Source: an uncultured Bacteroidia bacterium (GTDB lineage: Bacteria > Bacteroidota > Bacteroidia > JANWVE01). Taken from it: a stretch of DNA of 64,000 bases. Positions within the stretch are counted from its first letter, which is position 1; each line of letters begins with the position of its first letter. Of this stretch, positions 2,699 to 46,222 are shown one piece after another. The translations under genes and the position numbers were made by a program. The notes below the pieces were generated by a model. It saw nothing but the letters and a program-made list of their open reading frames with translations, ran no database searches and had not been told where the DNA came from. Location of the stretch: positions 192 to 64,191 of the forward strand of contig CALIZB010000045.1 of the NCBI GenBank assembly GCA_938028625.1, given 5' to 3'.

Positions 2699-5399
2699 TC
2701 AATAGCCCATAAAATAACTTATCTCTATTTGTACATATCGGGACATAAGCCGTTGATTTTGTATGGTATAGTTAAAATCTGTGAAGTTTATTTGTCTGAA
2801 TTGCTGATTGTTGAGTAGGTTATTAACTTTTACTCCCAAAGAAAAATGGTTTTTTTGATATTCGGCAAAAACATTGAGAAAATACGGCATATTGAGCTTT
2901 TGTCCGCGTATCATAAGATATTCAGAGGATATACCTGCACGAAATTTTAAGCTCAATGTATAAGATAAATCTAAAAATACATGTGTAGTCTGATTATATT
3001 GACGGTTAGTATTACTAGTTGCTATGTTATTAGCTACGGAATAAGTATGATTTTGTTGTACTTGAGCATGATAATTGAATACCTTAAATCCTGAACGCAG
3101 ACTTACAGAATAAAAGTGCGAATAGGTTATATTTTGCCTTTCCACGTTATTAACATAGTTAAAATATCGGAACTGATGAAGAGAATAAGTGCCGCGTAAA
3201 GCCGAAGTAATTTGTTTAAAGTACTGTGACACATTCGTGTTTATCATAAGCATTGTATTAGATTTATCTTTACTTACAAAAGCCATTTGATTTTGATTAG
3301 CTACAGTACTTATAAGATTTTCATACAATATGGGACGCTGCATAAGGTTGTACATAAGAATAGTATTCCATTTGAATTTACTTTGATTAGTGTTAAAAAA
3401 GTTGATAAAAGTAAAACTGTGTGAAGGTGAGATGTTAAACTGTCCTAATCCGAATGTGCCACCCTGAAAGTTTTGCAAAATATATCCGTCAAATACACTT
3501 TGAAAAGGACTTATATCCAATTTTCGTTCATAGTTAAGTGAAGTCATAAAAGGGCGCTTGTTGTATTGAACACTTATTTTTGGCAAAAAATAAGGCATTT
3601 GTAAAGTTTTTTGGTTATAGGTAAAATTCAAATATCCAGCTTCCGTAGTAAGATTAAGGCTATAATTTTCATGATTATATTTATGTTCTATGTATGCATA
3701 GTAACGTTGTGTAGTAGGTACACCAAGCCGATTAAGTGTATCAAAAAAAGTGCTGTAATCTGTAAAAAAAGCGGTTTTTATACGTTGTTTTTCATGTTCT
3801 GCACCGATAGTAGCGGTAAAATAGTATTTTTTGTGGTTAGTATTGTAAATAGCATTGAGTTTTGCATTTTGATGGGGCTGTTCAATGGTTTGTTGTATAT
3901 GTGCGTATCCTGTATCTTGTAATATAGGAACAAACTGATTACGATATAAATTATAGTGTTGTGTAAAATCAAATTCAGTTTGATAAAGTGTAATTAAGCG
4001 AATAGCTTGCTTTTTAGTAATTTGGTAGGTATATTCTGTATTTTCAAATAAAGTTTTTCTGAATGTGCGCAGGTGCTGTGTATAAGGTCTGCCATTAAAA
4101 AGTATCTCTTCATGATGGAATTTTTCAGTATAACTCAATCCATTTATCCATCTAAAAAGATGACGAGATTTAAGTTTGGAGAGGTAAGTACTCACATCTG
4201 TATTTAGAGGTTTGTAAGTAAGGCTGTGGCGTTGTGTATTTTGAATGGTATCAGAATTGGGCAAAATAAAACCTTGTGTATATTCCTGAAACATTTGATT
4301 TTTACCTGTGATTAAAGATGCAGTGCTTTTGAACTCCCATTTTTTGGGCAGTTTGAAAAGATAGGCTTGTTCTAGGTTGTAGCTTTGGTTAAAATTAGAG
4401 ATAGGTGTATTAAAATTGGATATAGTGGAGTAGTTTGGAAAATTGAGTATAGCTGTAGTTGGCGACATATCATAACTACTATTGGGATTAAGTAGGCTTA
4501 AATAATTTCCTGAAAAGAAGAAATCTGCGGTTTTTTCTAAATTCAGGTTATCGGTATCGCCTATGTTATTTGTTTTGGCAGAGAGAATAGTTTTGAATTT
4601 TTTACGAAGGAGCATTTCTTCTATTTTTACCTTGTAACGTGGTGCGTAATGTGCATCTATACCTGCGGATATGCTATATTCTCCTGTCCACACATTACGG
4701 GCTTTGGCATTGAGTTTTAAGTTAAGAACTTTTTCATCGGTGCTTTGAATTTTTGTAAGCAAAGGATTATCAGAGTATTTGTCTATTACTTGAATGGTAT
4801 CTACGGATTGTGCAGGGAGCGTTTTAGTAATTTTTTGATAATTATTTCCTTTAAGGTCATCACCGTCAATGAGTACGCGCGAGATTATTTTGCCATTATG
4901 TTTTATTTTACCTTTTTCATCAATTTCCACTCCCGGAATTTTTTTGAGAACATCTTCTATTTTTTTATCACCAGGTTGAATAAGGTCTTTTACTTTGTAG
5001 TCTAAGGTGTCTTTTATGGCAGGAGGCTTATTTTCTATGATAACTGTTTCTTTTAATTTGACTGTTGTAGGCACTAAAATAATATCAAAAAATTGAGTAG
5101 TTTTAGTAGTATCTATAATAAAAGAACGTGTTTTATAGCCAAGTAGTGCGATATCCAGGGTTAAATTAGGTTTTTTAGGTACTTCTATTTCAAAATTACC
5201 TTTGCTGTTTGTTTCACTAAATTGTAAGATATAACCTTCGGGGACTTGTTTTATTGTAACAATAGCTCCTGATATACTTTTTTGGTTAGTGCTGTCTTTT
5301 ACAGTTCCTTGAAGAAGAATATTTTGTGCATGAAGCGAGTAGCTAAAAAAAAAATTGTGTTACACAGAGCAGAAAATAAAAAAACAGGTTATTTTTCAT
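2699..5399 (-). pseudogene. TonB-dependent-receptor-like outer-membrane beta-barrel protein with N-terminal CarboxypepD_reg domain. The signal-peptide start (ATG 5397-5399) is out of frame with the body because of an A10/T10 homopolymer.
   Basis: Track ORF 2699..5074 starts at GTG. The same frame stays open upstream to a TAA at 5360-5362 and encodes ...FFFSYSLHAQNILLQGTVKDS (signal-peptidase site plus CarboxypepD_reg). Plug-like motif NLKLNAKARNVW follows. C-terminal aromatic residue (…FMGY). A perfect signal peptide MKNNLFFYFLLCVTQFFF sits in the -1 frame and terminates right after the T10 run. Confidence 0.6.
5345..5354. repeat. Homopolymer A10 (T10 on the coding strand) at the signal-peptide/mature-protein junction of the OMP gene. 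Candidate slipped-strand phase-variation switch.
   Basis: Ten consecutive A at 5345-5354. 9 or 12 T would fuse signal peptide and body in frame. Confidence 0.5.
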
Positions 5400-5576: not shown

Positions 5577-6353
5577 TCATTCAAATTCTATTTCCCATTC
5601 AGGGACAATGCTTTTATATTGAAAATGATATTTTACACGTTCTTCTTCGGGCGAGCGTTCTTCTTCGGCATTCATTTGTGCAGTAATTTCCTTAATTTTT
5701 TTATCTATGCGGGTTTTATAGTGTTCTTTATATTCTTGCCATGAAGTTTTTACATCATTTTTATGATAGGGGATAGAGGAATAGTTTTGTAAAATTTTTT
5801 GTATATTATCTTGTTTTACAGGTATTTCTATTTCATTACATTGTAGTACGATAACACTGTCCTGTGTATAAGCAGTAAGGATTAAACCAGGTAGTCCATG
5901 TAATTTCCATGGTCCAAATTTGATGGGGATTTGTGGCGTAAACCATGCTTGCCAAGTACGTCCCCTAAATGTTGTTATGGCTTTTTGACAGGTATAATTT
6001 TGTATTTTTTTCGTTTCAGGACAAATTTGCCATTTTATTTTTGGAATACCATGAGGTTCATACGTGTACACTCTATACGCAGGAATAACTGTGCGGATAC
6101 ACATCTGGTTTTTTGCAGAATACGTGTAAATTACATTTCCTATATTTTCTCTTTTATCTCTTTCTGCATCATAAACAAAAATAGCGGTTTGTTCGTTGTA
6201 GTACAGGAATGTAGGAATATTTTTTATTTCCTGTTGTTGTGCAGAGAGAGTGTCATTTTTGAATGAAAGACTGTAATAAATTATTCCATTGTTTATCTGA
6301 GACTTGCAATGAAAAGATACTATTACCAATAAGCTGATATGCCATATTTTCAT
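5577..6353 (-). CDS. GLPGLI-family protein (Bacteroidota-specific paralogous family of unknown function) with signal peptide.
   Basis: 258 aa. Literal GLPGLIL motif within ...FRGRTWQAWFTPQIPIKFGPWKLHGLPGLILTAY. N-terminal signal MKIWHISLLVIVSFHC. Paralog of 6791..7798. Confidence 0.7.
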   Translation of the reverse strand: MKIWHISLLVIVSFHCKSQINNGIIYYSLSFKNDTLSAQQQEIKNIPTFLYYNEQTAIFVYDAERDKRENIGNVIYTYSAKNQMCIRTVIPAYRVYTYEPHGIPKIKWQICPETKKIQNYTCQKAITTFRGRTWQAWFTPQIPIKFGPWKLHGLPGLILTAYTQDSVIVLQCNEIEIPVKQDNIQKILQNYSSIPYHKNDVKTSWQEYKEHYKTRIDKKIKEITAQMNAEEERSPEEERVKYHFQYKSIVPEWEIEFE

Positions 6354-6428: not shown

Positions 6429-6671
6429 TTACTTTGTTAGAATATCACATAATTTTCCTGCATTTGCACCTGCTTTTTTACATGCTTTTTCATAATTACT
6501 TCCTTCACCGTAACCAGTTATAGTACCGCCTGCACATTGTATAGTAACGGTACAAGATACTATTTGTACATCTTTTTTGGGTTCTACCTTTTCAGGTTTA
6601 TTCTCTGCCCAACTCATTACGGGGAGCAACATTAACGCCGCTACAACCCAAATTTTTCTTACCTTTTTCAT
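6429..6671 (-). CDS. Small secreted cysteine-rich peptide A (80 aa; Sec signal + ~54-aa mature peptide with 4 Cys and a GYGEG motif).
   Basis: N-terminus MKKVRKIWVVAALMLLPVMSWA|ENKPE. Mature part has C-x6-C … GYGEG … AC … C. Sits directly upstream of a GLPGLI gene. Paralog at 7824..8099. Confidence 0.6.
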   Translation of the reverse strand: MKKVRKIWVVAALMLLPVMSWAENKPEKVEPKKDVQIVSCTVTIQCAGGTITGYGEGSNYEKACKKAGANAGKLCDILTK

Positions 6672-6786
6672 AGCTTATTTATGAGATTAAATGCACCGCA
6701 GAAATCTAAAAAAAAAAATACAAGTCAAGTTTTATATAAAAAATATTTCTATTTTTCTTGTATCTCTTTGAAAAAGAGTTTTTTAT
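6589..6786. repeat. Copy A of a ~200 bp direct repeat (~96% identical to 8017..8218). Covers the first ~27 codons (signal peptide), 5'UTR and promoter of the small-peptide gene.
   Basis: Base-by-base comparison with 8017..8218 shows ~6 substitutions plus a 2-nt homopolymer length difference. Homology ends abruptly after ENKPE codons. Confidence 0.8.
6708..6718. promoter_or_regulatory. Poly(A)11 / poly(T)11 tract in the putative promoter spacer of peptide gene A (~37 nt upstream of its ATG).
   Basis: In minus-strand orientation: …AACTTGACTTGTA-T11-AGATTTCTGCGG…ATG. Flanked by TTG (-33-like) and TAgaTTTC (Bacteroidota -7 TAnnTTTG-like) elements. Copy B has T13. Confidence 0.4.
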
Positions 6787-6790
6787 AGAT

Positions 6791-7798
6791 TTAGTATTCA
6801 AATTCTAATTCTATCTGAGGTTCTTCACATACAGCTCCCATTTTTATCATTCTAAAACTATTACCTCTACTTTGATATTCTGCATTTAATTGTTTTGTGT
6901 ACTCATCAATTTTCTTTTGAGTTAAAGTTCTATAATAGTCTTTGTAATCCTCCCAAGTTGCATTCAACTTACCGTCCCGATAAGGTTTTATTTCTAGTCC
7001 AATATCTTCCAGAATAAGTTTATTGGTAGCAGGAATTTCTATCTCTTCAAACAAGAAATTAATTTTTTTATCTTTATCATATACTTCTAAAATTAAGCCG
7101 GGTAAGCCATAGAACTTCCAAGGACCCATTTTAATAGGAATATCAGGACAAAACCATGCTTCCCAATGCCTTCCCCTGAAATAACAGGTAGCTTTGTAAC
7201 AAGTAAAAGAACCTAATCTTCGGGTTTCTGTGGTAATACTCCAATTAAATTTAGGAAATTTATCGCCATTCTCTTCTATGATAGCTAATCCTAATAAAAA
7301 AACACCATCTCTGTGCACCATTTCTTTGGTTAGTATGTTTTTATATATTACTTCGCCGGTGTTATCAAATTTTGTTTTTGTATTAGGTATTTTTTTACTG
7401 CCATACATGTACACAGAAGCATAATCATTAAAAAGCAAAAAAGACGGATTAACCGTAGAACTTTTTCGATCGAGCATAATAATACTATAAACACTATCAG
7501 GTATGTTTTGATTAACTTCAAATATTTGTTTGTAAGTAACTAAACCTGTTGTGTTTTGTGTATAAACTAAATAATTGAAGCAAGATAACAAGATAATTAT
7601 AGTGCTTAGTTTCATGGCGAGATAATTACATAATATATTGATGAATAAATTTGAAAATGCTGGTATTTTAATTGTATGAATAGCTATTTTAAACTTACTT
7701 AGCATACCATTTTTATGCTTAAGGGTATCTATCACACTTTGAAATACCAGTTCAAGGTTATTAGAAAATTTGTTATTTAATACACATTTATGACTCAA
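6791..7798 (-). CDS. GLPGLI-family protein, second paralog. The track ORF starts at TTG 7798. Probable true start is the signal-peptide Met at ~7614 (MKLSTIIILLSCFNYLVYTQN).
   Basis: …FRGRHWEAWFCPDIPIKMGPWKFYGLPGLILEVY… aligns with the 5577..6353 product. The internal Met begins a clear signal peptide. Confidence 0.65.
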   Translation of the reverse strand: MSHKCVLNNKFSNNLELVFQSVIDTLKHKNGMLSKFKIAIHTIKIPAFSNLFINILCNYLAMKLSTIIILLSCFNYLVYTQNTTGLVTYKQIFEVNQNIPDSVYSIIMLDRKSSTVNPSFLLFNDYASVYMYGSKKIPNTKTKFDNTGEVIYKNILTKEMVHRDGVFLLGLAIIEENGDKFPKFNWSITTETRRLGSFTCYKATCYFRGRHWEAWFCPDIPIKMGPWKFYGLPGLILEVYDKDKKINFLFEEIEIPATNKLILEDIGLEIKPYRDGKLNATWEDYKDYYRTLTQKKIDEYTKQLNAEYQSRGNSFRMIKMGAVCEEPQIELEFEY

Positions 7799-7823
7799 TC
7801 ATCAAATAGTATTTGAGAAATGA

Positions 7824-8099
7824 TTATAGTAGGGCAAATACCGTACACATAGCTAATGCTGACACATATGCTTCTGCACAAGCACTTGCCTGGTCCACAC
7901 CCTCACCATACCCATATACCCAACCGTCTGTCCACTCGCTACATTTAGTAGCTAATACACAAGGGATCTGTTGTACTTGTTTTGTGTTTTCTATTTTTAC
8001 TTCATTTCTTGGAGTATTTTCAGGCTTATTCTCTGCCCAACTCATTACGGGGAGCAACACTAACGCCGCTACAACCCAAATTTTTCTTACCTTTTTCAT
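7824..8099 (-). CDS. Small secreted cysteine-rich peptide B (91 aa), paralog of peptide A. Near-identical signal peptide, divergent mature region.
   Basis: N-terminus MKKVRKIWVVAALVLLPVMSWAENKPE. Mature part again has C-x5/6-C … GYGEG … AC … C. Located upstream of the second GLPGLI gene. Confidence 0.6.
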   Translation of the reverse strand: MKKVRKIWVVAALVLLPVMSWAENKPENTPRNEVKIENTKQVQQIPCVLATKCSEWTDGWVYGYGEGVDQASACAEAYVSALAMCTVFALL

Positions 8100-8218
8100 A
8101 GCTTGTTTATGAGATTAAATGCACCGCAAAAATCTAAAAAAAAAAAAATACAAGTCAAGTTTTATATAAAAAATATTTCTATTTTTCTTGTATGTGTTTG
8201 AAAAAGAGTTATTTTTAT
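8017..8218. repeat. Copy B of the ~200 bp promoter + leader direct repeat (see 6589..6786).
   Basis: Direct comparison. Contains an A13 tract (8136-8148) instead of A11. Confidence 0.8.
8136..8148. promoter_or_regulatory. Poly(A)13 / poly(T)13 tract in the promoter spacer of peptide gene B.
   Basis: Same context as 6708-6718 but two nucleotides longer. Confidence 0.4.
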
Positions 8219-8389
8219 ATATTGGTGTTAGAATTACAACCAAAATACTTTTTTTGTATTGTTAAATAAGCAAACCTATATTGAGTCTAACTAATAATAA
8301 TTCAAGTTATGCATTGAGAAGTTAAATGTAAAGTGGATATAAGAAAAATTTGTTTGTTTAGAGATAATTCTTGTAAATTGCATGCGGAT

Positions 8390-15886: not shown

Positions 15887-15993
15887 ATTAAAAAATATAG
15901 AATTTTAAGTTTTTACATCTAAATTTTACTTTGTTTGCAAAGGTAGTAATAAATTAGCAATTACAAGTTTTATGAGTATTCATTTTTCTTTTT

Positions 15994-16130
15994 TTGGGCG
16001 TGTCCTTCACCCTTCGGCAAGCTCAGGGTTCAGGTCGGCGTGCTTTGGGCTACGCTATCGCTTCGGTGCTACGCACTGTGCTCACGCACACCCTTCGCAT
16101 GCCTCACGCAATTCCTAAATCAAAATTCCT
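15994..16130. other. GC-rich (~60% GC) ~135-nt island in an AT-rich intergenic region, with several CUUCGG-type hairpin motifs and short direct repeats. Possible structured small RNA or foreign remnant.
   Basis: Sequence gggcgtgtccttcacccttcggcaag…cgcttcggtgctacgcac…cccttcgcatgcctcacgca. Lies directly 3' of ettA on the minus strand and upstream of 15886. Confidence 0.25.
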
Positions 16131-17808: not shown

Positions 17809-17952
17809 GCCACAAAAATACAGTAAAAATAAAAATACAAAATCAAACTTTTTGACTATTTCCCAGCATTTTCAAAAAATATTAGATGCTTTTTTACGAT
17901 TTTGAACTTTTTTACAATTTTGTTTTTTTATTTGCGCGTCAAACTACTAAAT

Positions 17953-38529: not shown

Positions 38530-38726
38530 CAGGGGCAAAAAGTTTAATTGTTTCTTTATGGAAAGTGAACGATGAAGCTACTCAGATTTTAATGACGGCT
38601 TTTTACCAGAACTGGATAGCCAAAAAACAAGATAAATACACAGCTCTGCTCAATGCACAGAAAGAACTATAAAAAAAATATCCTGACCCATACTATTGGG
38701 GAGCATTTATTTTATTGGGCAGGTAG
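38466..38726 (+). pseudogene. C-terminal remnant of a CHAT (caspase-like protease) domain. Frame differs from the TPR ORF and it contains an in-frame TAA.
   Basis: Frame-0 translation …FTVVAGAKSLIVSLWKVNDEATQILMTAFYQNWIAKKQDKYTALLNAQKEL*KKYPDPYYWGAFILLGR* matches the conserved CHAT tail (…AGA…v.SLW.V.D.aT..lM..FY……ALr.Aq……hPyyWAaF.L.G). The catalytic His/Cys core (~250 aa) is absent. Confidence 0.6.
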
Positions 38727-43052: not shown

Positions 43053-43135
43053 TTTTTAGATTTTTTTTAAAAATCCTTTGCATAATTAAATCATATCTCT
43101 TATTTTTGCATTAGCAATCTTTACTTATTATCTTT

Positions 43136-46100
43136 GTGAAACATGTAAAACAATATGTTATTACTTTTCTTGCAATATTTATTTTAGGTTTTAGCCAAGA
43201 AAGTTTGGCTTCTCATGGCATGGGTTGGGATATTTCTTATACCCATCTCGGTGGAAATCAGTACCGCGTACGATTATCGTTTTAAAGAGACTGTAACGGT
43301 ATTACAGAAGGTAGCAGCCAGTATATCAGTATTACCAATGGATGTGGTTTTACCAATCCTTCTCTAACTGTGAATTTATTAGCAGGCTACCCGCAAGATG
43401 TATCGCCTTTATGTGGTACAGCTGTGAGTGTTTGTGCGGGAGGTACAGCAAATCCTGCGGTACAATTATATGCGTACGAAGGTGTGGTAACTCTACCCGG
43501 TGCTTGTGCAGACTGGCGATTTGCGTACTCTTCTTGCTGCCGAAATGCTAGTATTACTACTATTACCTCTCCGGACACTCAAAGTTATTATGTAGAAGCA
43601 CTGCTTAATAACACTATGGCCCCTGGCAATACTGCACCTACATTTACTAATCAACCTGTTGGTGCTATCTGTGTAAATCAAATATGGAATTTTAATAATG
43701 GTGCCGTAGAACCTGATGGTGATATCTTAGTGTACAGTTTAATTGCCGCAAAAACCACTGCTTTTACCGCTGATGTTCCTTATCTTGCAGGATTTTCAGG
43801 TACACAACCTTTTACTACTGTTCCTGCCGCAGGTACTTCCATTAACCCTGCAACAGGTCAAATAACAGTAAACGTACCGAGTGTAATCGGGCAGGTTACG
43901 GTATTTGGAGTATTAGTAGAAGAATATAGAGGTTCTATTGCCCCTGCCAATAAAGTAGGACACGTAATGCGAGATTTACAAATTTCTGTACAAAACTGTA
44001 CTAATATCAATCCTACTGTTCCAACAGGTTTTGGTAGTGTTTCAGGAGGTAATGTTACAGGACCTCTTACTGTACAAACTTGTCCTGGGGCAAATCTTAA
44101 TTTAACTTTTAATATTACAGACCCTAATACAGGACAAGTGATTACAGTTACATGGAATAATGGCATTCCCGGAGGTACGTTTAGTAGTACAGGAACTAAT
44201 CCCGTAACTTCTACTTTCACTTGGACGCCTGGTGCAGGAGATGTAGGAACACATTATTTTACAGTTACCGCCACAGACAACAACTGTCCCGTAGTAGGGC
44301 AATCTACTTTTACCGTAACTGTACAAGTACTACAAGGTACAGATGCGGGTCCTGACCAAGTTACTTACTGTGGAGTACCTATTCAACTCAATGCTACGGG
44401 AGGAACAACCTTTACATGGACAACCTTAGGTGGAGGTCCTCCAATAGGGTTAAGCTGCGCTACATGTCCTAATCCTATTGCTACCCCAGCCGTAACTACT
44501 ACATACGTAGTACAAAGTAATGTTCCACCTCCCTGTCCTGATAGAGATACGATTACTGTTGTTGTAGCGCCTGGGTTTAATCTCACTATGAGTCCTGATG
44601 TAACTATATGTAGAACATCTTCTACAGTTATAACTGCTACTCCTGATGTGCCTTCTACTTATACTTACTCATGGAATCCTGTTACCGGTTTGTCTAGTGC
44701 TACGGTATCTAATCCAACAGCAAGTCCTACGGTAACTACAACATATACTTGTACTGTAACTGACGTGGTTACAGGTTGTCAGAGAACAGGTACTGTAACT
44801 GTCACCGTTGTAGCTGCAGATATTAACGTAACCAGCGTAACCTCTACTCCTCCAGATTTTCCTTGTGTAGGGGGTGCAAACACTCTAACCGCTAATATTG
44901 TTGCAGGTGATTGCAATGTATATCAGCGTACAGCCATACCATACGCGGCACCGCCCGCAGGGGGATATACCACAGAACCCACTACTGATGGTTGTGATGA
45001 CTGTGTTTCAGGTGCTATACCTATAGGTTTCACTTTTACTTATTACTGCACAAATTATACTAATGTGTATATTAGTTCTAATGGATTTATTAGTTTTGAC
45101 GCCGCACCTGGTTCGGGCTGTTGTTCAGGACAAAATATTCCTAATACTACTGCACCTAATAATCTTGTGGCTTTGTGTTGGACGGACCTTAACCCAGGTT
45201 CTGCGGGTAGTATTCGCTACAAAACCATAGGTACTGCACCCAATAGACAATTTATTGTATTTTATGATAATGTTCGCCACTATGGAAGCAGTTCTTTAAA
45301 TGTAACAGGATACATTATTCTACACGAAACTACAAACTATATTGACATCATGAGTACCCAAATAGATAATAATGGAGGTATTATGACGCAAGGAGTAGAA
45401 CGTGCAGGAGGAACTGCCGCTGTGCCTTCACCTGGCAGAAATGCTACTTCATGGGGTGCTACTAATGACGGTAATAGATTTCAGCCTACGCTTACTCCTT
45501 ATACTGTTACCTGGTATATCGGGGCAACGCCTATCGGTTCAGGCAATCCTTTTGCTACTACTACCATGGCTACTACTACTTATACTGCCGTAGTATCTCC
45601 TACCTCAGGTCCTCCATGCACCGCCACAGGTAGTGTAACTGTAAACGTAGGTTGTCCTTTACCTATTGAACTTACAGAATTTAAAGGACATCTCGCAGGC
45701 AGAGATGGCGTACTGAACTGGTATACTCAAACCGAAGCTAATGCCAAAGGGTTTGATGTAGAACGTTCCACTGATGGTACTAATTTTACCAAAATTGGTT
45801 TTGTTAAAGCGTATGGAAACTCTGCTAATATGCAAAGCTATACCTTCACAGATAAAAATCTTTCTGATGGTAAGTACTTCTATCGCTTGCGTATTGTCAG
45901 TATGGACGGGCAGTCCACTTACTCTAATATCGTAGAACTTAAACTCTCTGATGTATACAGTTCATTTGAATTATTAGGTTTATATCCTAATCCTGCGGAT
46001 AATAATGTTACTATTTCTTATGCTCTTCACAAAGCAGGAGATTTGAAAATTGATGTTATAGATTTACTTGGTAAACAGGTATTAAGCGTAGAAGATGTTC

Positions 46101-46222
46101 AGAAACCCACAGGAAATCATCAGAGTACTTTCTCTGTAAGAAATTTACCCTCCGGACAGTATATCATTAAATGTCAGCATGGTGGTAAAAATGAATTTTA
46201 CAAACTTGCTGTAACACACTAA
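43136..46222 (+). pseudogene. Large secreted adhesin-like protein with T9SS C-terminal sorting domain. Interrupted by a single in-frame TAA (43283-43285) 49 codons after a GTG start with signal peptide.
   Basis: Frame 2 reads (GTG)KHVKQYVITFLAIFILGFSQESLASHGMGWDISYTHLGGNQYRVRLSF*RDCNGITEG…VNLLAGYP… and is continuous with track ORF 43370..46222. The stop replaces the Tyr of the conserved N-terminal Y-RDC motif. C-terminal …LYPNPADNNVTISY…GQYIIKCQHGGKNEFYKLAVTH is a T9SS CTD. Confidence 0.6.

Follow-up and report, generated by a model that had tools for sequence, protein, structure and literature searches.

The DNA window analyzed here (the whole stretch of 64 kb, AT-rich with a GC content of 34.7%, from an uncultured Bacteroidia bacterium) contains five consecutive minus-strand genes between 8220 and 2699, which encode, in this order, a small secreted peptide (peptide B), a GLPGLI family protein (GLPGLI-2), a paralogous secreted peptide (peptide A), a second GLPGLI family protein (GLPGLI-1), and an outer-membrane protein (OMP). 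Each peptide gene is preceded by an uninterrupted run of T residues embedded in a 5' module that the two genes share. The length of this tract varies between samples, the tract lies between conserved elements, and it is kept across species. The features of the module are given below in window coordinates.

6708..6718, minus strand: poly-T tract of copy A, T11 in the window (A11 on the plus strand)
8136..8148, minus strand: poly-T tract of copy B, T13 in the window (A13 on the plus strand)
6589..6790, minus strand: 5' module, copy A; it comprises a conserved block upstream, then TTGACT, the T tract, the -7-like box, the 5' leader, and the codons of the signal peptide
8017..8220, minus strand: copy B of the 5' module, with about 97% identity to copy A
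6723..6728, minus strand: TTGACT of copy A, candidate -33 element (TTG), invariant in five module sequences
8153..8158, minus strand: TTGACT of copy B, candidate -33 element
6699..6708, minus strand: candidate -7 region of copy A, TAGATTTCTG
8127..8136, minus strand: candidate -7 region of copy B, TAGATTTTTG

An earlier note on this DNA had pointed out the T11 and T13 tracts, and we confirm both at these positions, with 36 nt separating the end of each run from its ATG (6671 for peptide A and 8099 for peptide B). The same note described the run as the only length polymorphism of the repeat, which is indeed the case: over about 202 nt, the two module copies differ by 6 substitutions, and their sole indel lies in the T run and amounts to 2 nt, the start-to-start spacing of the copies changing from 1428 to 1430 across the tract. 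The module extends from about 120 nt 5' of the ATG through the leader and the entire signal peptide up to AENKPE and is thus more than a promoter. The tract is flanked by TTGACTTGTA upstream and by TAGATTTC in copy A or TAGATTTT in copy B downstream. T11 and T13 are the two longest homopolymers of the window, and the third longest, a T10, belongs to the same gene cluster. For independent and identically distributed bases at this GC content, 0.39 A/T runs of at least 11 and 0.04 of at least 13 are expected per 64 kb, T11 and T13 not being independent of each other because they belong to two copies of one module.

The single-nucleotide polymorphisms (SNPs) that tell the two modules apart (window positions 6632, 6677, 8105, 8129, 8194, and 8196) are swapped between the copies in another assembly (L003). 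Furthermore, in a Logan contig (L001, 1-250), the flank that lies upstream of copy B is fused to the sequence for mature peptide A. The SNP exchange and this junction reflect either gene conversion or recombination between the repeats or mis-phasing during assembly.

Length variation and conservation of the T tracts

Searches for exact proteins recovered this locus from assembly ERZ6864144 (a 59-kb contig) and from the Logan assemblies of runs ERR9287621, ERR9287625, and ERR9287890. Logan contigs break at the repeat, so that few of them span a tract, and the tract lengths given here are those of assembly consensus sequences from 3-4 samples. ERZ6864144, which is 99.7% identical to the window over 17.7 kb, carries T9 at both promoters, and T9 is also present at the single promoter recovered from ERR9287625. 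The suggestion of the earlier note that the tract is variable is thus borne out, with T11/T13, T9/T9, and T9 in the different samples. The alignment of the window with ERZ6864144 spans 17,708 nt and contains 42 substitutions and only three indel events, with changes of -2 in tract A and -4 in tract B and a third of +1 in the intergenic T7 located at 15989. An additional 20.7 kb contributes three indels, located in an intergenic T8 at 43061, beside an A8 at 38671, and in a 3-nt non-repeat sequence. The indels at the tracts (2 and 4 nt) exceed the changes at other runs (1-2 nt).

Coding A/T runs of at least 7 behaved differently from the tracts, since all 68 comparable runs, including T10, A9, and T9, are identical across the assemblies. 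This invariance makes homopolymer sequencing error unlikely, and the length differences at the promoter tracts are real alleles or majority alleles. About 5 of the 11 compared intergenic A/T runs of at least 7 also differ between samples, so that variation alone is not the mark of a contingency locus; the features that set the twin tracts apart are the size of the changes and their location. One of the other variable runs is a T8 at 43061-43068 on the plus strand, about 10 nt 5' of a -33 element, with lengths of 8, 9, 10, and 9 in four samples. The promoter on its 3' side is a canonical TTTG-N20-TATTTTTG and drives a 1028-aa type IX secretion system (T9SS) cargo gene (43136-46222).

A third member of the peptide family, P0005 (89 aa), is encoded on contig L092 of Logan sample SRR27215045, in the gene order peptide, GLPGLI, OMP. 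The L092 species is about 21% diverged from the window at the nucleotide level: the OMPs share 76% of their amino acids (about 78% of nucleotides), identity between its GLPGLI protein and GLPGLI-2 is 59%, and that between its peptide and peptide B is 55%. The 5' module of L092 aligns with that of the window at 79-80% over 200-240 nt, level with the coding genes, whereas no alignment was obtained between the GLPGLI-OMP intergenic regions of the window and L092. At the orthologous tract, L092 has an uninterrupted T10 (6136-6145), the longest run of its 9.8-kb contig, and its module also retains TTGACT, AGACTTTTGC, GTGCATTTAATCT, and the signal peptide. Invariant throughout the five module sequences are TTGACT, a T run free of other bases, AGAyTTyTGC, and GTGCATTTAATCT, together with long stretches of the signal-peptide DNA, synonymous positions included. 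Since the module is conserved like coding sequence, the tract appears to be a retained part of a constrained regulatory block. Exact-pattern scans of genome_contigs and metagenome_contigs returned no match for the promoter module and none for the conserved signal-peptide DNA; the window species is not represented in these two collections.

On contig L094 (231-1857; SRR32459160), a GLPGLI-1-like gene directly follows a GLPGLI-2-like gene, with no peptide gene in between. This absence suggests that peptide A is lineage specific and that, together with its 5' module, it may be an insertion or duplication that occurred in the lineage of the window.

Promoter elements and readings of the tract

The sigma-A factor of Bacteroidota does not use -35/-10 boxes, and the promoter spacer of Bacteroides thetaiotaomicron has been described as variable in length (PMC7366714). 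Exact TAnnTTTG boxes occur at 19 sites in the window, mostly as TATTTTTG or TACTTTTG, for example at 17820(-), 25024(+), 40774(+), 56239(+), and 60859(+). They end 0-10 nt (mostly 4-8) 5' of the ATG of long open reading frames, the 5-6 nt directly upstream of them are T-rich, and a TTG or TTTG is mostly found 16-23 nt upstream, which is a loose spacing. As the corresponding box of Flavobacterium psychrophilum occupies positions -12 to -5 (PMC9723704), most window transcripts with exact boxes would be leaderless or nearly so, and leaderless or near-leaderless mRNA may be the rule in this organism. In B. thetaiotaomicron only 3.7% of mRNAs are leaderless, and in F. psychrophilum 5.5% (PMC7366714, PMC9723704).

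At the twin tracts, the -7 box can be read in two alignments. In copy A, TAGATTTC matches 5 of the 6 specified bases of TAnnTTTG and GATTTCTG matches 4, while in copy B, TAGATTTT and GATTTTTG each match 5. The TAGATTTC/TAGATTTT box includes the final T of the run, with its end 29 nt 5' of the ATG; the end of the GAyTTyTG box is 27 nt 5' of the ATG, and its sequence is GACTTTTG in L092 versus GATTTTTG in copy B of the window. Neither alignment is favored across the five module sequences, the best score being 5/6. These boxes imply a leader of about 23-25 nt, the usual leader length of B. thetaiotaomicron and F. psychrophilum (PMC7366714, PMC9723704). The spacer, counted from the TTG within TTGACT, amounts to n+6 for the TAGAyTTy box or n+8 for the GAyTTyTG box, n being the length of the run.

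T9: spacer 15 (n+6) or 17 (n+8)
T10: spacer 16 (n+6) or 18 (n+8)
T11: spacer 17 (n+6) or 19 (n+8)
T13: spacer 19 (n+6) or 21 (n+8)

These spacers (15-19 or 17-21) straddle the local range of 16-23, and both the T-rich stretch and the distance to TTG fit the local promoter pattern. The spacer optimum of the Flavobacterium johnsoniae ompA promoter is reportedly 19 nt. The placement of the tract in a promoter spacer is therefore a reasonable proposal, supported by the conservation described above. The earlier note had set the run between a TTG and a -7-like element, a view that we retain in part: both elements are conserved in the T10-bearing relative, but the box reaches only 5/6 where the local promoters are exact. 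A sigma-70-type reading, TTGACT-16-TAGATT, was discarded, as it exists in the T13 copy only and such sites are no more numerous than in shuffled sequence.

Our working model has at its core a slippage-prone T run embedded in a promoter-like module of the form TTGACT, 4 nt, T(n), AGAyTTyTGC, which would drive the small secreted peptide gene and probably also the GLPGLI gene behind it. Replication slippage would alter n (9, 10, 11, and 13 being observed) and, with it, how far apart the -33-like TTG and the -7-like box are. The outcome would be a heritable and reversible tuning of transcription for each peptide-GLPGLI unit, the two copies varying independently, and the C/T polymorphism within the -7 region (6701 versus 8129) would widen the differences between them. 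Given the loose spacing in this genome and in B. thetaiotaomicron, a graded effect is to be expected rather than a clean ON/OFF switch. We put the probability that slippage in the promoter-embedded run tunes peptide-GLPGLI transcription in such a graded manner at roughly 45%, both the position of the run in a promoter spacer and an effect of its length on expression being inferred. Phase variation through a change in spacer length, as the earlier note had it, is plausible but unproven at the twin tracts: the lengths do vary, but a strict ON/OFF behavior is not implied by 2-4 nt where spacing ranges from 16 to 23.

Several observations weigh against tuning. The -7-like box is imperfect in either alignment, compared to 19 exact promoters in the window, and it ends 27-29 nt before the ATG instead of 0-10 (mostly 4-8) for the exact boxes. 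Spacer tolerance is broad, so that 2-4 nt may matter little. At least three other intergenic A/T runs vary between the same samples, and their drift indicates that neutral drift is enough to explain the variation of the tracts. Finally, the independent observations number 3-4 per tract, all of them consensus sequences in a 200-nt repeat with uncertain phasing.

Neutral length drift is accordingly the main rival of tuning, and we hold it to be a real, if tentative, possibility that an ordinary promoter has the T run as its T-rich spacer or upstream stretch, and that the run, being long, slips frequently, with no meaningful consequence for expression and without being kept for switching. The distribution of variable runs is as drift would have it, with about 5 of 11 intergenic A/T runs of at least 7 varying and no coding run doing so, and with some of the variable runs devoid of an obvious regulatory position (15989, and 43061, which is upstream of its -33 element). 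The broad TTG-to-box spacing of this genome, together with the variable one of B. thetaiotaomicron (PMC7366714), points in the same direction. Drift accounts less readily for the persistence of at least nine uninterrupted T residues in every copy, in every sample, and in a species about 21% diverged, within a module conserved at the level of coding sequence, or for changes of 2 and 4 nt at the twin tracts versus 1-2 nt elsewhere. We regard as improbable a different layout in which the tract is outside the spacer, either because the promoter is downstream and near the ATG, in the leaderless manner of this genome, with the T run as an UP-like or bending element, or because it is farther upstream, with the T run in the transcribed leader, where RNA polymerase slippage or U-tract effects could act. 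Most clear promoters of the window do place their -7 box 4-8 nt before the ATG, AAACTTTG of L092 ends 8 nt before its ATG, and TATTTTTT boxes with 1 mismatch exist upstream of and at the tract, one consisting of TA plus the T run itself and one being 66 nt upstream of the ATG. However, these alternative boxes are not conserved between the window and L092, neither the TATTTTTT candidates nor the ATG-adjacent TAAATAAG being found there, whereas TTGACT and AGAyTTyTGC are conserved. Moreover, the only candidates near the ATG in the window copies are boxes with 2 mismatches (TAAATAAG and TAAACAAG), and the leader has no significant RNA structure, the folding z-scores at the tracts being -0.9 and -0.1.

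That the lengths are homopolymer miscalls, or an arbitrary assembly path through the 200-nt repeat, seems very unlikely. All the sequences are indeed metagenome assemblies, and the swapped module SNPs and the L001 junction between the copy B flank and peptide A imply that phasing within the repeat is unreliable. Nevertheless, the agreement of 68 of 68 coding runs argues against miscalls, three assemblies have T9 and one has T11/T13, a consensus difference of 2-4 nt is atypical of short-read error, and an independent species carries T10. Two other functions were considered for the tract and rejected. A terminator or RNA element is not compatible with the absence of terminator-like sites between 5300 and 8500, of a G+C-rich hairpin directly 5' of the T runs, of significant folding, and of an Rfam match at the tract. 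An invertible promoter would require conserved inverted repeats flanking the module, and none were found; the inverted matches nearby are weak and AT-rich (23 nt at 83%, one arm being inside the GLPGLI-1 gene), and a small palindrome of copy A is conserved neither in copy B nor in L092.

If expression does depend on tract length, the locus would represent slipped-strand promoter variation under the -33/-7 grammar of Bacteroidota, and the function worth varying would be that of orphan disulfide-type secreted peptides placed ahead of GLPGLI genes and a dedicated OMP. If the tracts are neutral, they are ordinary hypermutable homopolymers, useful as a strain marker and as a warning about the assembly of short repeats.

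Gene products and the tract of the outer-membrane protein gene

The genes of the cluster are the following.

7824..8099, minus strand: peptide B, 91 aa, paralog of peptide A and ortholog of P0005
6791..7615, minus strand: GLPGLI-2, GLPGLI family protein, downstream of peptide B
6429..6671, minus strand: peptide A, 80 aa, with signal peptide MKKVRKIWVVAALMLLPVMSWA and a mature part of 58 aa containing 4 Cys
5577..6353, minus strand: GLPGLI-1, GLPGLI family protein (TIGR01200), downstream of peptide A
2699..5399, minus strand: outer-membrane protein, with a CarbopepD_reg domain, whose gene is the last in the same-strand cluster and has a T10 interrupting its signal-peptide codons

Both GLPGLI genes match TIGR01200 well above the cutoff of 50 bits (115.8 and 142.8 bits) and also match the Pfam family Porph_ging. 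Peptides A and B are 50% identical overall, with near-identical signal peptides and about 35% amino acid identity in the mature parts, and GLPGLI-1 is 36% identical to GLPGLI-2; beyond the shared module, the two peptide-GLPGLI units are thus old paralogs. The signal peptide ends in ...PVMSWA/ENKPE, where the +1 residue is not a Cys, and hence has no lipobox. Neither peptide has an above-cutoff match in Pfam or NCBIfam, and the AlphaFold model of the peptide, a beta-hairpin plus a helix with a pLDDT of 80.6, gave no significant match in a comparison with the PDB. A word-seeded protein search with peptide A retrieved the two window peptides alone, and a profile search over 1.84 billion representatives added one true relative, P0005; two further weak profile matches are repeat proteins and were regarded as spurious.

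The secreted peptides form an orphan family with four members across about 15 billion proteins (window 6429-6671, window 7824-8099, L092 6186-6455, and L094 1-159), one of which is known from its C-terminal part only. All four are encoded immediately 5' of GLPGLI genes. The hallmarks of the family are a near-invariant signal peptide and a core C-x5-C...G-Y/S-G-x-G...AC...C, predicted to form a beta-hairpin plus a helix.

The third tract of the cluster is a T10 at 5345-5354 (minus strand) in the signal-peptide codons of the OMP gene, which puts the ATG at 5399 out of frame. With T9 instead, the gene would encode an intact protein of 899 aa that starts with a normal signal peptide. All four assemblies agree on T10 here, although intergenic runs vary, and the L092 ortholog is intact and has no such run. 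The T10 could correspond to a fixed pseudogene, to a phase-OFF state, or to a gene rescued by transcriptional slippage. One may imagine a multitract contingency system in which the two promoter tracts, slipping independently, and the OMP T10 would combinatorially set the expression of the peptide-GLPGLI-OMP cassette, the module being homogenized by gene conversion while the secreted peptides diversify, but we consider so elaborate a system rather unlikely. Were it real, it would bring repeat-driven phase variation to a phylum known for invertible promoters and provide a first functional handle on the uncharacterized GLPGLI family.

As to the wider context, the phosphoribosyl pyrophosphate (PRPP) synthetase of the window is 74% identical to that of the metagenome-assembled genome (MAG) "Bacteroidia bacterium SKYG108", the next matches being Bacteroidia and Cytophagales MAGs, and the window also encodes a T9SS cargo protein (Por_Secre_tail). 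In SKYG108, the nearest named relative, dnaB and GC-rich repeats precede nuoN in place of a peptide-GLPGLI cassette (L008, 1-1530). This different nuoN context means that the cassette is not syntenic there. The intergenic region 15996-16125 is the only stretch of the 64 kb with a GC content of at least 55% (58-62%). Several copies of related sequence occur in the same SKYG108 locus (81% over 91 nt, plus fragments), the RNA fold of the region has a z-score of -2.1, and Rfam contains no match to it. The region resembles a dispersed GC-rich repeat element.

Comparison with known systems

If they tune transcription, the twin tracts would belong to a familiar type of promoter variation by slippage. 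In Bacteroidota, a review of phase variation treats the phenomenon solely as DNA inversion, and the invertible promoters of Bacteroidales rely on site-specific inversion between inverted repeats (PMC11868660). They have in common with our locus the phylum and, as proposed here, heritable changes in how surface or secreted factors are expressed. They differ in mechanism, since the window module has no conserved inverted repeats and would, if functional, operate by slippage.

Among slippage systems, the promoter poly-A of Neisseria meningitidis nspA varies in this way (PMC6389960). In Neisseria, as possibly here, the transcription of surface or secreted proteins depends on how long a homopolymer in or near the promoter spacer is. 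The porA and opc promoters contain a poly-G/C tract between -35 and -10. These are sigma-70 promoters of host-adapted pathogens with a demonstrated effect on expression, whereas our locus belongs to an uncultured Bacteroidia with a -33/-7 grammar. The promoter poly-T of Helicobacter pylori sabA also varies by slippage, with alleles of 13-19 residues within and between strains (PMC2715451). The resemblance includes a poly-T of similar length in a promoter region, together with a second repeat in a coding region at the locus, to be compared with the T10 of the window OMP. The sabA tract is next to the core promoter, in contrast to the window tract between the elements, and within-strain heterogeneity was measured for sabA, whereas the window tracts are known from assembly consensus. 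The effect of the sabA tract was later described as graded.

The closest system in architecture is vlp of Mycoplasma hyorhinis, which reportedly has a poly(A) in the promoter spacer, a sigma-70-type -35/-10 promoter with a defined ON length, and lipoprotein products with repeat domains. The window peptides depart from the latter by a signal peptide without lipobox (SWA/E) and by their nature, as Cys-containing peptides of 58-69 aa. The phylum and the promoter grammar are also different, the ON length of vlp having reportedly been demonstrated. In both systems, clustered paralogs combine a conserved 5' block, made up of an A/T-homopolymer promoter and a signal peptide, with divergent mature regions. 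The window follows this pattern, with a module about 97% identical compared to amino acid identities of about 35% for the mature peptides and 36% for the GLPGLI proteins. As in vlp, each copy has its own tract, so that the two copies could vary independently.

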